UHGV virus genome: UHGV-0097969
Strand: one strand, 5' to 3'
Source: a virus
DNA: 45,847 bases
Under the pieces are notes generated by a model. The model saw only the letters and a list, made by a program, of their open reading frames with translations, did not search any database and was not told the origin of the DNA. The position numbers and the translations under genes were made by a program. Position 1 is the first letter of the stretch; each line of letters begins with the position of its first letter. This document shows, one piece after another, positions 26,029-39,738 of this stretch.

Positions 26029-26104
26029 TGGTGGCCCCTACCGGATTTGAACCGATGACCGTGCGATTATGAGTCGCCTGCTCTAACCACTGAGCTAAGG
26101 GGCC
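26029..26104 (-). tRNA. tRNA with CAU anticodon (Ile2 or Met), CCA encoded
   Basis: Reverse complement GGCCCCTTAGCTCAGTGGTTAGAGCAGGCGACTCATAATCGCACGGTCATCGGTTCAAATCCGGTAGGGGCCACCA folds as a cloverleaf (7-bp acceptor, GCTC/GAGC D stem, TTCAAAT T loop); first half resembles ileX-type as recalled. Confidence 0.85.
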
Positions 26105-34181: not shown

Positions 34182-34199
34182 TTAACGAACTCCAGTCAA

Positions 34200-34317
34200 A
34201 CCACGATATGTGGTATTAAAACCACATATCGTGAGTTTTTCAATGGGCGAAACAAAAAATAACCTTCTATTTGTGGTCCACCTCTCGTCTTACCATGTGA
34301 AAACCACTAAATGTGGT
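34200..34317. promoter_or_regulatory. operator cluster ACCAC-N5-GTGGT in the divergent immunity promoter region
   Basis: Perfect sites ACCACGATATGTGGT (34200-34214) and ACCACTAAATGTGGT (34303-34317), partial sites at 34221-34233 and 34272-34280. Confidence 0.55.
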
Positions 34318-34354
34318 AATGTATAAATAACCCACCATTCACGATTGATGAGAC

Positions 34355-35011
34355 ATGAAAAGCAACGACGAGAACATCAAGAAAGAAATAGGTCTGCGCA
34401 TTCAGACTCTACGGAAACAATCCGGCATGACTGCCGGAGATCTCCAGCAAGTCACTGGAATAGGCTTAAGCACCTTGCAGAACTATGAGGCCGGATTAAG
34501 ACAACCATCTATACCTGCCATCAAGAAAATCGCGCACGCCCTGAAAGCATCAGCGCCTTATATCGCGTGCTTAACAGATAACCCGTTCCCACCCCAGAAT
34601 ACTAACGCTCCTGTTATTCCTGGGCTTGTAGCTATAAAAAATGACATAGCATCGCACGCCGGAGAAAAGCCAGTGCTGGCGATAGAACAGGAGATTCTAC
34701 GAAGCAAGAACATCAACCCATCGTCTCTGTCAGTTCTCCAGAGCAACGATGAGTTAATGTCACCAACAATATCCCCAGGCTCCCAAGTCCTGATTAATAC
34801 AGACGATACAGAGATTCATGAGGGGATCTATGCCCTTGAAGACAGAAATGGCCTGGTTGTTTTGAGGCACTGTAGAGTCATACCGGGTGACAATGCTGTT
34901 ATGCTGTCAACCGAAAGGGATGCTGAAATGAACACTAAGCATCTGAATAACGAGGAATTTAAGCGTTATAAAGTTCTGGGCCGCGTAGTTAGTGTTGTCA
35001 ACTGGTTATGA
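34355..35011 (+). CDS. CI-like repressor (HTH plus S24/LexA-like C-terminal domain)
   Basis: HTH ...QSGMTAGDLQQVTGIGLSTLQNYEAG...; C-terminal domain of LexA/CI type. Confidence 0.8.
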   Translation: MKSNDENIKKEIGLRIQTLRKQSGMTAGDLQQVTGIGLSTLQNYEAGLRQPSIPAIKKIAHALKASAPYIACLTDNPFPPQNTNAPVIPGLVAIKNDIASHAGEKPVLAIEQEILRSKNINPSSLSVLQSNDELMSPTISPGSQVLINTDDTEIHEGIYALEDRNGLVVLRHCRVIPGDNAVMLSTERDAEMNTKHLNNEEFKRYKVLGRVVSVVNWL

Positions 35012-35613: not shown

Positions 35614-36282
35614 ATGGAGTCTCGACAAATGACTATCTCTGTAGGTATTTTCAACGGAAAAGGCGGCGTAACCAAATCAACAATTGCCCGTGCTTTAGCA
35701 GTTGCTTATGCAAAGGCCGGCTGGAATGTATGCCTGATCGATATGGATGTGCTTAACGGAACGGTAACGCGTTGGGTACAACGCAGAATGGCCAACAATA
35801 TCGAACCTGCAATCGCGGCGCAGCCGTGCGGCACACCATCACAAGTCCAGAAAATCATCGAATCAGAAGTATACGACCTGGTTATCGTCGATGGCGGTGC
35901 CTACGCATCTGAATCAGTACCGAAGCTCTCTGAATTTCTGGATATGGTTATTTTGCCAACCAGATTCTCTACCGATGACCTGGAAACCACCGTTAACACA
36001 GCTCATGGCATCGTTAAAAAGGGTGTGCCAATCAAGAAAATTTGCATGGTGTTCTCAGGCGCGGCTGAAAACGAAGCCGACTACATTGAAGCCCAAGAGT
36101 ACCTGGCTAATACGCCATACTTTGTTGTCGATAAGTACATTCCCCACAAGCCAGCTCTGAGCAAAGCTCAGGATAAGGGCTTAAGCCTCATTGAGTGCTC
36201 ATACGTTGCGCCACGCAAAAAGGCAGACGACGTTATTCAGGGGATTATCAACCAGCTTGAGGCTCTGACTACTGCCGCGTAA
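35614..36282 (+). CDS. parA: ParA/ParF-type partition ATPase (type Ib)
   Basis: Deviant Walker A GIFNGKGGVTKST; about 220 aa; probable true start ATG at 35629 with GGAG upstream. Confidence 0.85.
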   Translation: MESRQMTISVGIFNGKGGVTKSTIARALAVAYAKAGWNVCLIDMDVLNGTVTRWVQRRMANNIEPAIAAQPCGTPSQVQKIIESEVYDLVIVDGGAYASESVPKLSEFLDMVILPTRFSTDDLETTVNTAHGIVKKGVPIKKICMVFSGAAENEADYIEAQEYLANTPYFVVDKYIPHKPALSKAQDKGLSLIECSYVAPRKKADDVIQGIINQLEALTTAA

Positions 36283-36795: not shown

Positions 36796-36819
36796 TAAAA
36801 AAGGCCCCCGAAGGGGCCT
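36796..36819 (-). terminator. intrinsic terminator between convergent units
   Basis: AGGCCCC-cgaa-GGGGCCT stem with T-run on the minus strand. Confidence 0.5.
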
Positions 36820-36824
36820 AATCG

Positions 36825-36947
36825 CTACTTGCTGCTAATGTTTATCGTCACATTCAGAGCGTTATCAGTAATCTTCCAACCCTCCCCATGTGGCGTAAAC
36901 AAAGCTCCAGTAACAACGATAAAAATACACATGTAGTATTTTTTCAT
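36825..36947 (-). CDS. small hydrophobic peptide (40 aa), putative
   Basis: MKKYYMCIFIVVTGALFTPHG...; AAGGG SD; terminator directly after the stop. Confidence 0.3.
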   Translation of the reverse strand: MKKYYMCIFIVVTGALFTPHGEGWKITDNALNVTINISSK

Positions 36948-37261
36948 TGTGTGGCCCTTACAGGCCGTTTCACGGCATCCCCACCGACGAAAATGACGCG
37001 AGAGCAAGCACGCTGTTTGTGCCTGCGTGGTACGGCAAGTGGATAATCCTTTCCTGAAAGTCAGTGCCCGGGTGCGAATCGGCGGAAAGGCCCCAAGCCA
37101 TATTACACGTCATACCCTTCATAATGAAGGAATAAAAAACGCTTTTATTACATAAGATTACACGTAAATAAGTTAAAAACCTTCATTTTGCATGAGCTAA
37201 TGAGCTAAATTTTTTTATATGAATAGTGGACTATTCACCTCAGTTGGGTAAGAATGTAGTT

Positions 37262-37365
37262 GCTGTTTGTGCTTGCGTGGTTGTATTAGTACAACGACGT
37301 TATGCTGAAAGGACCGCGAATCCGATCAGCACGAAAGAACCGTCCTCAAAAGGACGGTTTTTTTG
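37262..37365 (+). ncRNA. candidate small RNA (about 100 nt)
   Basis: Promoter-like TGGACT-N17-AAGAAT (37227-37255), strong terminator ACCGTCCT-caaa-AGGACGGT plus T6 at 37339-37365; 3' end overlaps the stop of the convergent HTH gene. Confidence 0.35.
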
Positions 37366-37918
37366 TTTCTCCCCCTTCCTTCCCAAATGATTCAAATGTT
37401 AATGAGAGTGAATCATTTGATATGTTCGATTTAGCGCCGTTATCGACCCAATTTCTGTATGCTTCATCACAACAGTACCTTACAGCAGTTGGAATAACAG
37501 GAGAGCCGCCCAGAAATGAAAATCCCATTGAGCTTATGCTAATTCTTTCGAATGGCCTATTTCTCAATGCTTCAAATCCCTTGCTGTTGAAGTAACTCAG
37601 CATCAGAGGTAAAAGGTTATCCTCGTCTTGACTGATTGTTCCCGGGAAAAAGTAGTAACCATGGCGATTAAATTCGGGAATCAGTTTTTCTACCAACAAC
37701 ATGAAATTCATTGGGGTAATATTAAGGGCAGAGCAAGCACCAAAAAGAGCATCAACCGTTAATACAGACTGTCCGTTCTCTATCTTTGTCCATGCGTTTG
37801 GTGTTTTTCCAGCAGCTTGAGCCAGCACTCCTTGATGCACACCTCTTTCTAGCCTAAGTTCTTTTATGATCATTAGGTGGATTGTTGAAAAACATGAGTT
37901 TTTTGACGTTTCAGTCAT
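37346..37918 (-). CDS. HTH (XRE-type) regulator with C-terminal domain of unknown function
   Basis: Likely ATG at 37918 (track 37975); divergent from the antirepressor operon. Confidence 0.5.
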   Translation of the reverse strand: MTETSKNSCFSTIHLMIIKELRLERGVHQGVLAQAAGKTPNAWTKIENGQSVLTVDALFGACSALNITPMNFMLLVEKLIPEFNRHGYYFFPGTISQDEDNLLPLMLSYFNSKGFEALRNRPFERISISSMGFSFLGGSPVIPTAVRYCCDEAYRNWVDNGAKSNISNDSLSLTFESFGKEGGETKKPSF

Positions 37919-38094: not shown

Positions 38095-38203
38095 TTGACA
38101 TGAATGCGCCATTGGTGGACACTTTCCGAGCCGTAGCAAAATCTACGGTCGGGATTGGAACCCCGTAGACACAATGGCGCATACCGCGTTAGCGGTTTTT
38201 TTA
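38095..38203 (+). promoter_or_regulatory. promoter plus structured leader with intrinsic terminator (attenuator or small RNA) ahead of the antirepressor operon
   Basis: TTGACA at 38095-38100; hairpin CCGTAG-caaaat-CTACGG; long-range GCGCCATTG...CAATGGCGC; terminator ACCGC-gtta-GCGGT plus T7 at 38183-38202. Confidence 0.35.
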
Positions 38204-38368
38204 TGCGTAAAGCACTGCTACACCCAAATTATGGTGGGGCGTGCGGGGGAGTCGTAAGACTCGCCGGTTCGTCATTGTGTCCGGTAGTTCCAACCCAGCA
38301 CGTCTCACCACCCAATGATTGGAACCTGACGGTGGTGAGTATCCTTAACCTTTAAGGGAATCATCACA

Positions 38369-38560
38369 ATGACAAACCTACCCCATGACTATTACGTCAA
38401 CCTCGTAAAGATCCTTCTCAAGAAAGCCTCATACGCCGATAAATTCCGCTTGGCTGAAATAATCGAGCGCGAAGCTATGCGCATCGCCAGCAACGATAAC
38501 GCTGTTTCTGACGCAAAAATCTCCCTCGTAACCAAAGTAGTTATGGGAGGTGCAAAATGA
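38369..38560 (+). CDS. small protein upstream of and coupled to the antirepressor
   Basis: 63 aa, AAGGGA SD; stop overlaps next start (ATGA). Confidence 0.4.
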   Translation: MTNLPHDYYVNLVKILLKKASYADKFRLAEIIEREAMRIASNDNAVSDAKISLVTKVVMGGAK

Positions 38561-39738
38561 AAACGCTTCCGACCGTTAACACCCTACAGCCTATCCTGCA
38601 TAACCAAATCCCCGTTATCACTACTGAACTACTGGCAAAGCTATACGGCACAGACGTTGATAACATCAAAAAAAATTACTCACGTAACGCAAACCGCTTT
38701 ATTGAAGGAAAGCATTTTTTCAAAGTGGCTGGCGATGAGTTAAAAACTTTGCGAGTGACTTTAAGTCACTCACAAAATTTGCGACTGGTTTTAAACGAGT
38801 CACAAAATGAGGTGCAAATTTCCCCCAAAACTCGCTCTCTCATCCTCTGGACAGAACGCGGGGCTGCACGTCACGCCAAAATGCTTGAAACTAACCAAGC
38901 GTGGGATGTGTTCGAACGGCTGGAAGACTGCTACTTCAACCAGAACGCGCAAACGGCCGCGACCGTTACCGTCTCGCCAAACAATGCTCGTGAGGTTGTC
39001 GATACGCTCAACGCCAAACCGATGTTTTACATTAAAGTGTGCAACAACGAGCCACTCACAACCTCAGCCGATGTTGCCCAGGCATTCAGCACCACAAACA
39101 ATTCCATCGTTATGGCCATCGATGCGCTACGCATTCCTCGCACGGCTGCGGCGCGTCACTTCTTTAAAGAGCAACGACCGCTGGAAGGAAGCGACCGCGA
39201 AATAACAATCTATCGCATGACAAAAGACGGATTTACCTTACTCATGGAGAGCATCGACGGTCCAAGCGTGAAAGATATCAAGCTGGCCTACATTGAAGCC
39301 TTTAACGCTATCAGCAGCGTGTTAAAAACACAGTACGAGCGTGATCTGGCTAAACGACTGTACCAGGAAAAAACGATTATCCGCGCGGCAACAGAGCATA
39401 ATCGGCTATTAACGGAACCGAACTACAGGAAGGAACTAATCAAGGAGTTTGACAAGGCAACAGGAAAAACCAAAGCGGCGCTAAATCTGCCAGCAATGAC
39501 TCAGGAAAATGTGATATCAGCCTTACTTCTTGATCTGCTCAGAAACGCCAGAGCACTGATCAGCTTTGACGAAAACCTGAATCCTCAGCTCAAGCTACTA
39601 CCACCGACAGGCAAAGTAGTCGACCAGGCAGATCACAACAGCATACTCAGCGTACTGGATGCAAACCTACCAGCCAGGACACTACAGGAACTGATAAAGA
39701 TATCGGCGGATAAACTGGCCGCAGGTGCAAAACCATAA
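38557..39738 (+). CDS. Rha-family phage regulatory protein / antirepressor (ORF6N-like N-terminus plus Rha domain)
   Basis: ...ILWTERGAARHAKMLETNQAWDVFERLEDCYF... and ...ITIYRMTKDGFTLLMESIDGPSVKDIKLAYIEAFNAI... resemble ORF6N and Rha signatures. Confidence 0.55.
   Translation: MKTLPTVNTLQPILHNQIPVITTELLAKLYGTDVDNIKKNYSRNANRFIEGKHFFKVAGDELKTLRVTLSHSQNLRLVLNESQNEVQISPKTRSLILWTERGAARHAKMLETNQAWDVFERLEDCYFNQNAQTAATVTVSPNNAREVVDTLNAKPMFYIKVCNNEPLTTSADVAQAFSTTNNSIVMAIDALRIPRTAAARHFFKEQRPLEGSDREITIYRMTKDGFTLLMESIDGPSVKDIKLAYIEAFNAISSVLKTQYERDLAKRLYQEKTIIRAATEHNRLLTEPNYRKELIKEFDKATGKTKAALNLPAMTQENVISALLLDLLRNARALISFDENLNPQLKLLPPTGKVVDQADHNSILSVLDANLPARTLQELIKISADKLAAGAKP

Follow-up and report, generated by a model that had tools for sequence, protein, structure and literature searches.

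[quoted passage not shown] The toxin gene ryfA has since been renamed timP, and the chromosomal system is known as timPR, also STnc2070 (PMC7667032). Its mRNA of ~300 nt is folded into SL1-SL4 and encodes a peptide of 38-41 amino acids with a hydrophobic N-terminus, which is translated and toxic in Salmonella (PMC7667032). [quoted passage not shown] Eighteen nt at the 5′ end of the small RNA TimR are complementary to SL2, which precedes the RBS by more than 60 nt (PMC7667032, PMC11228461). A lower stability has been reported for TimR than for the timP mRNA; removal of timR at its native locus did not stop growth of Salmonella, and no persister or phage phenotype was observed (PMC7667032). The published work is mechanistically detailed, concerns the chromosomal locus only, and has established no biological role for timPR. 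Our literature search found no paper discussing a plasmid- or phage-borne copy.

The arrangement of two divergent, non-overlapping genes is also that of tisB/istR-1, zorO/orzO, shoB/ohsC and dinQ/agrB of E. coli, which likewise employ a trans-encoded antisense RNA with a seed of ~20 nt far upstream of a structured RBS. Unlike timP, which uses a structural switch, these systems need nucleolytic processing or standby sites, and they share no sequence homology with the locus described below. Since plasmid type I toxin-antitoxin systems have been known since hok/sok, a timPR copy on a plasmid is unsurprising in kind. The hok/sok system of plasmid R1 offers an analogy insofar as it, too, is a plasmid-borne small membrane toxin with an unstable antisense RNA and a proposed stabilizing role. 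Only hok/sok has a cis-overlapping antisense RNA, translational coupling through mok and activation by 3′-processing; its sequences are unrelated to those studied here, and post-segregational killing has been demonstrated for hok/sok while it is presumed for our locus. A hok/sok-type module was rejected because the antisense gene lies clear of its target, 250 nt away, and Rfam gave no hok/sok match.

The stretch of DNA analysed (the window; 45,847 nt, virus genome UHGV-0097969) represents most of a ~48-kb myovirus-type phage-plasmid, which carries genes for a contractile tail, capsid, terminase and lysis together with RepA, ParA and RelE/ParE. Judged from its sequence, the locus at 36797-37368, which carries no annotation, belongs to the enterobacterial timP/timR (ryfA/ryfB) type I toxin-antitoxin family as a divergent copy (Table 1). 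Both RNAs and the peptide are homologous to their chromosomal counterparts, and the architecture, the complementarity between the RNAs and the covariation of the pairing segments are all present. We put the joint claim, that this phage-plasmid locus is timPR and acts by the mechanism proposed below, at a probability of about 85%. The family and its mechanism are already known, and the plasmid copy is an ordinary member in a less usual home. An earlier, sequence-only reading of this DNA had offered a type I toxin/antisense pair as one option, and this was right, the ORF being homologous to TimP and the plus-strand RNA to TimR. That reading overlooked the existence of a well-studied family (timPR, identical with ryfA/ryfB; PMC7667032, PMC11228461, PMC13000454), and also that the toxin transcript is larger than the ORF, since it is a predicted mRNA of ~300 nt reaching up to 37095 with the upstream repeat copy inside it.

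Table 1. Features of the timPR locus in the window, and the seed/target haplotypes found among its relatives
Feature	Position	Strand	Basis
timP (ryfA) mRNA, ~300 nt: SL1-SL4 5′UTR, 40-codon ORF, terminator	36797..37095	-	Rfam RF00126
timP intrinsic terminator	36802..36819	-	terminator scan; 7 bp, 6 GC
TimP-like ORF, 40 aa, MKKYYMCIFIVVTGALFTPHGEGWKITDNALNVTINISSK	36825..36947	-	ORF list; NCBIfam NF040796
SL4 (GGCC/GGCC), with part of Shine-Dalgarno AAGGG (36955-36959) inside	36953..36966	-	consensus fold
SL3, with pseudoknot site 3 GUCGGUG (36982-36988) at tip	36970..37001	-	consensus fold and pseudoknot test
SL2, 8-bp stem	37004..37026	-	consensus fold, 14 homologues, columns 70-93
Predicted TimR-binding site: 5′ flank, 5′ arm and loop of SL2	37012..37031	-	upstream repeat copy
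Site 2 (UGCCGU), partner of SL4 5′ flank	37032..37037	-	5/6 pairs with site 4 kept
Pseudoknot site 1 (CACUGAC), upper SL1	37060..37066	-	7/7 pairs with site 3, one G·U
Predicted timP -10 box (TAATAT, minus strand)	37100..37105	-	inferred; predicted start near 37093-37095
Predicted timR promoter (TGGACT, 17 nt, AAGAAT)	37227..37255	+	inferred; hexamers conserved
TimR-like antitoxin sRNA, ~105 nt	37262..37368	+	covariance model R1 match 37257-37364
TimR seed, downstream repeat copy	37262..37281	+	repeat search, duplex energies
TimR hairpin 1 (GUUGUA-UUAG-UACAAC)	37280..37295	+	alignment, fold
TimR hairpin 2, family-invariant loop CCGCGAA	37304..37330	+	joint alignment
TimR terminator, overlapping convergent HTH stop	37331..37366	+	arms 37331-37346 / 37351-37366, 16 bp, then T run
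Haplotype A (window)			GCTGTTTG..
Haplotype B			GCTGCTTG..
Haplotype C			GCCGCTTG..
Haplotype D			GCTTACTTG..ATACGAGT

The sequence-only reading had proposed searches of Rfam and of small-toxin databases. An Rfam scan of the whole window matches the minus strand to ryfA (RF00126) over the full length of the model (1-296/296; 134.6 bits, gathering score 80, E=2.1e-34). Plasmid-type relatives score 134-142 bits and chromosomal ryfA RNAs 227-315, so that the RNA in the window has about half the bits of its chromosomal counterparts. The peptide is matched from end to end (1-40/40) by the NCBIfam family toxic_TimP (NF040796; E=1.2e-4), with a score of 22.2 bits that lies below the curated cutoff of 45, a value which is an annotation criterion and not a biological one. 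All plasmid-type TimP variants fall at 21-24 bits, and the TimP of Yersinia plasmid pGDT4 reaches 47.2, just above the cutoff. Pfam contains no TimP family.

The annotated TimP of pGDT4 is the closest relative of the peptide (49% identity, with GGW.IS.N...VTIN.SGK in common); identity to K-12 TimP is 35%, and a separate BLASTP alignment gave 33% (E=1e-6). The start of the 40-aa ORF coincides with the aligned timP AUG, after SL4, and the N-terminal alignment reads M-K/R-x-Y-x-C-I-x-x-V-V-(S/T)-G-A-L, which is hydrophobic and signal-like. The ORF had been reported previously as lying on the opposite strand with a terminator of its own, and it does: reading leftwards from 36947 to 36825, it is followed by a short GC-rich hairpin terminator at 36819..36802.

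A different view of the minus-strand transcript is that it acts mainly as a non-coding riboregulator, the RyfA sRNA, and that the small ORF is incidental. RyfA has stress-resistance, biofilm and virulence phenotypes in Shigella, UPEC and APEC, which have been interpreted as sRNA effects (PMC8205139, PMC10664665, PMC13188913). Across 14 plasmids the 3′ half of the timP transcript shows no nucleotide difference (100% identity), which fits constraint on the RNA, and a codon comparison between the window and IMG/VR contig L060 (9 synonymous and 14 non-synonymous changes) gives no strong coding signature. This view is nevertheless improbable, since TimP homologues that are only 35-59% identical have kept the start, the stop, the length (39-40 aa), the hydrophobic N-terminus and the C-terminal ..VTIN.S(S/G)K, since conservation extends to the Shine-Dalgarno sequence, to SL4 and to the pseudoknot that activates translation, and since the Salmonella peptide is both made and toxic.

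A consensus fold of 14 timP RNAs (six plasmid-type, the window included, and eight chromosomal) recovers all of SL1-SL4 as well as the start-codon hairpin and contains 13 compensatory pairs. The SL1-SL3 pseudoknot helix, 7 bp as in the chromosomal system, is 100% paired in 14/14 homologues, and three of its pairs are altered on both sides; slid controls in the same homologues are 27-67% paired. These compensatory changes fall between the plasmid and the chromosomal types of timP. The GGCC/GGCC stem of SL4 covers two G's of AAGGG, and in the plasmid type a U-A pair is replaced by C-G, again compensatory. SL4 is shorter than in chromosomal timP (4-5 bp versus 6-7 bp) and its stem is weaker. The site 1-site 2 pairing, which locks the inactive conformation of chromosomal timP, is not clearly preserved: in the K-12 register the plasmid type shows an A-C mismatch at its centre, and a shifted 4-bp GGCA/UGCC alternative can be read by hand from the alignment. 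RNAalifold also pairs the 5′ with the 3′ end (columns 4-6 with 304-306), a pairing that overlaps the timP terminator stem. From this pattern of conserved pairing we predict that the translational switch of timP is retained on the plasmid copy.

For the plus-strand RNA a covariance model (R1) was built from 13 aligned chromosomal TimRs of Citrobacter, Kluyvera, Superficieibacter, Pseudocitrobacter, Salmonella arizonae and Escherichia spp., the plasmid sequences being left out. Its sole strong match in the window is full length (37257-37364, plus strand; 53.6 bits, E=2.4e-10). Plasmid and chromosomal TimRs align in four common modules, these being the seed, hairpin 1, hairpin 2 with its CCGCGAA loop, and the terminator; in hairpin 2, every plasmid-type sequence has A-U at two positions where the chromosomal RNAs have G-C, each a compensatory change. 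Segment 37258-37368 of the plus strand has a folding energy of -46.5 kcal/mol (z = -6.1 versus shuffles). The strong terminator previously noted for this RNA was confirmed as a 16-bp hairpin followed by a T run; it is missing from a simple terminator scan, probably because the T run is taken up by A/T pairs that lengthen the stem. The minimum-free-energy fold of the window TimR sequesters the seed, which is the case neither in haplotype lineages B-D nor in the chromosomal TimRs, and as an unconserved feature this fold was rejected as regulatory and treated as prediction noise.

Rfam holds no TimR family, and both the window RNA and the K-12 TimRs yield only sub-threshold, terminator-driven matches there. 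Those to OrzO-P, ohsC and AgrB are weak, and identities of the sRNA as RNAI, OrzO, ohsC or AgrB were rejected on the ground that the K-12 TimRs give the same matches. The match to ColE1 RNAI (RF00106) has 28.2 bits (E=0.0016), the gathering score being 47. Together with the position of the 3′ end, whose overlap with the stop of the convergent HTH gene the sequence-only reading had described (the TGA, 37346-37348, minus strand, sits within the terminator hairpin), this match could suggest that the plus-strand RNA is chiefly an antisense RNA to, or shares a terminator with, the HTH gene, or that it controls replication in the manner of RNAI, with the direct repeat a coincidence. We regard this as very remote and already largely refuted. 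The sRNA is conserved in plasmid pEC0585-2 (L003) and in contig L060, both of which lack the HTH gene, and the overlap of terminator and stop codon is therefore incidental; the replicon is of the RepA type, with the initiator encoded ~7 kb away; and the covariation of seed and target, to which we now turn, rules out coincidence. The terminator may act bidirectionally.

The 20-bp direct repeat was found as claimed, with GCTGTTTGTGCCTGCGTGGT at 37012-37031 and GCTGTTTGTGCTTGCGTGGT at 37262-37281, a single C/T difference and a spacing of 250 nt. There are no further copies on either strand with up to three mismatches (0.00 expected, 100 shuffles). When divergent transcripts have a direct repeat in common, their RNAs are complementary, and the repeat is thus an antisense seed/target pair, a point the sequence-only reading had missed. 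The first 20 nt of the sRNA form 20 bp with SL2 (19 Watson-Crick and one G·U; -39.4 kcal/mol). The predicted duplex lies at +65..+84 of the timP mRNA, and the AUG at +149 is 64 nt downstream, so that, as in the chromosomal system, the sRNA 5′ end faces an SL2 that precedes the RBS by more than 60 nt.

Among 22 copies of the locus we distinguished four seed/target haplotypes (GCTGT.., GCTGC.., GCCGC.. and GCTTAC..; Table 1), and in each both repeat copies have changed in step. Because seed and target covary, the repeat is not a coincidence. The cognate target is the best or tied-best partner of every plasmid sRNA, at -32 to -39 kcal/mol. Energies across systems are weaker: plasmid TimR with K-12 timP gives -17 kcal/mol, and the K-12 TimRs with plasmid timP -18 to -21 kcal/mol. 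The changes in both copies and the difference between cognate and K-12 energies lead us to predict a functional seed/target pair that is insulated from the chromosomal system of the host. By these energies, TimRs of haplotypes A, B and C would partly cross-protect, whereas none would be expected between D and A or between K-12 and the plasmid. Besides this orthogonal seed and the shorter SL4, the plasmid pair differs from the chromosomal one in the spacer between the two start sites, ~165 bp in the window versus ~75 bp in K-12.

The promoter-like element upstream of the plus-strand RNA fared less well than the rest of the sequence-only reading. A TGGACT hexamer, 17 nt and AAGAAT are indeed present, and the hexamers are conserved across 14 plasmid variants amid a hypervariable spacer, but the element is weak (8/12). 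Both predicted promoters score 7-8/12 and are unlisted by a promoter scan with a threshold of 9/12. At the position of the timP -10 box the plasmid lineages have TAATAT, TAACAT or TAAAAT. The spacer itself (37096-37261) is hypervariable between lineages, with indels and low identity, while the timP 3′ half and TimR hairpin 2 are nearly invariant, which suggests either mosaic recombination or diversifying selection on promoters and seed. A perfect palindrome, AATAGTGGACTATT, occurs at 37222-37235, overlapping the predicted timR -35, and is lost in three plasmid variants (L007-L009). Other copies in the window are not above chance; this, the loss in three variants and the different cI operators led us to reject the palindrome as an operator in common with the CI-like repressor. 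The K-12 timR -35 is likewise embedded in a palindrome, an unrelated one.

By analogy with Salmonella, in which transcription, toxicity and repression are known, the locus would operate as follows. An mRNA of ~300 nt would be transcribed leftwards from about 37095 and would encode, behind its SL1-SL4 5′UTR, a TimP-like small inner-membrane toxin of 40 amino acids. Its translation would need the 7-bp SL1-SL3 pseudoknot as well as release of the Shine-Dalgarno sequence from SL4. The TimR-like sRNA of ~105 nt would be transcribed rightwards from about 37262 and pair through its first 20 nt with the 5′ flank, the 5′ arm and the loop of SL2, ~64 nt upstream of the AUG. This binding would open SL2, prevent formation of the pseudoknot and so block initiation of TimP synthesis.

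The locus occurs in at least 60 Escherichia plasmids (PLSDB), three Yersinia phage genomes and nine IMG/VR contigs; the sequences deposited for Yersinia phages vB_YpM_41/44 are identical. In the 71 complete E. coli genomes that possess it, it is always on plasmids, and the copy on plasmid NZ_CP009073 of E. coli ATCC 25922, a standard laboratory strain, is 99.3% identical to the locus in the window. Every phage-plasmid record that we inspected, whether plasmid or phage, lacks a timPR annotation, the reasons being the peptide score below the NCBIfam cutoff and the absence of a TimR family from Rfam. The phage-plasmid falls outside the pSLy3 and SSU5 groups of Pfeifer et al., and our literature search found no paper describing this ~48-kb family.

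Plasmid-borne timPR is also found on conjugative plasmids of Yersiniaceae, namely Y. pseudotuberculosis pGDT4 (NC_011759), where it is annotated, and plasmids of Y. similis and Serratia spp. The seed/target direct repeat of these plasmids is alike in form, again with a single C/T (G·U) difference. Their setting differs, in that the carriers are conjugative (IncFII/MOBP or MOBF) with a phospholipase-D-family gene and a relaxase beside the module, whereas the module in the window adjoins a partition operon. The copies on the phage-plasmid and on Yersiniaceae plasmids indicate that the timPR family is horizontally mobile. The Yersiniaceae copies recorded are those of pGDT4 (L081, 3928-4330), Serratia pJSRIV001_1 (L082) and Y. 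similis (L083), located between the phospholipase-D-family gene and the relaxase, and downstream of the pGDT4 copy is a second, truncated timP/timR-like remnant.

In the window, timPR directly follows parA (35614-36282), which has a small partner ORF as its neighbour, an 82-aa ORF and a 49-aa ORF, and precedes a variable XRE-HTH gene and then an ORF6N-Rha antirepressor cassette controlled by isrK/C4. In this phage-plasmid, widespread in Escherichia and Yersinia, an intact, co-evolving timPR thus has the partition genes as neighbours, a position that suggests a maintenance function. Our tentative proposal, to which we give somewhat less than an even chance, is that the module stabilizes the element by acting on cells that have lost it, through either post-segregational killing or inhibition of their growth. 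It is the most likely role in view of the location next to parA on a low-copy prophage-plasmid, the mismatch between the seed and chromosomal timPR, and the reported instability of TimR. As native timR removal left Salmonella growing, killing after plasmid loss is not assured. A further point against a maintenance role is that the RelE/ParE of the element could already provide addiction; a RelE/ParE type II pair is located near repA on the ATCC 25922 plasmid (L080, 15512-16158), and its presence in the same phage-plasmid family means that the element may have two addiction systems.

It is conceivable, if doubtful, that timPR was recruited as an addiction module and that seed and target then diversified into lineage-specific 'bar codes'. 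Equally speculative is the corollary that these bar codes insulate the module from chromosomal TimR and, in the most divergent lineage, from related elements. Were the addiction reading true, it would be the first clear selective function for timPR, and the lineage pairs would constitute a natural orthogonal set of seeds and SL2 targets for studying the pseudoknot switch.

Type I systems have elsewhere been linked to phage exclusion. A genuine timPR might accordingly serve in defence or superinfection exclusion, for instance through abortive infection once transcription of TimR is halted by an infecting phage, or as a membrane-acting helper in the lytic cycle of the element. The position of the module between the maintenance genes and the immunity/antirepressor region (CI-like repressor, isrK/C4, ORF6N-Rha) would suit such a role, as would the adjoining variable HTH cassette, a common sight in accessory or defence islands. 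We consider it rather unlikely, because deletion of timPR in Salmonella left P22 infection unaffected (PMC7667032), the immediate surroundings of the locus yielded no defence genes, and a holin/endolysin cassette is present elsewhere on the element.

Several other features of the neighbourhood were recorded. The XRE-family HTH gene (37346-37918, minus strand) between timR and isrK is a variable cassette, present in the window, in ATCC 25922 and in some lineages. Directly upstream of a 63-aa ORF and the ORF6N+Rha antirepressor are isrK (RF01394, 38130-38202) and the C4 antisense RNA (RF01695, 38227-38315). This region (38130-38315 and 38369-39738) has been kept in three related elements (L003, L007 and L060) and looks like a P1 immI-like antirepressor control cassette. 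The CI-like repressor (34355-35011, within the region 34199-35011) has an HTH_3 and a weak Peptidase_S24 match, and it is preceded by three inverted repeats of the AAACCAC...GTGGT type, which probably make up the immunity operator region of this element. A tRNA-Met (CAT) gene of the phage-plasmid lies at 26029-26104 (minus strand).

Hairpin 2 was also used as a DNA search pattern. In IMG/VR its first version returned 47 loci, mostly chance matches, of which nine were real. A refined version found 17 chromosomal loci in GTDB genomes and was specific, yet too strict, missing the Yersiniaceae type with its CCGCTAA loop. With one version mostly chance and the other too strict, the pattern is unfit for estimating the size of the family. 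Finally, K-12 has two TimR paralogues, the timP-adjacent ryfB, which pairs with timP SL2 at -25.4 kcal/mol, and a distal copy, which does so at -35.8 kcal/mol. The distal copy adjoins the remnant of a second ryfA 5′ end, which is IS128 in Rfam.
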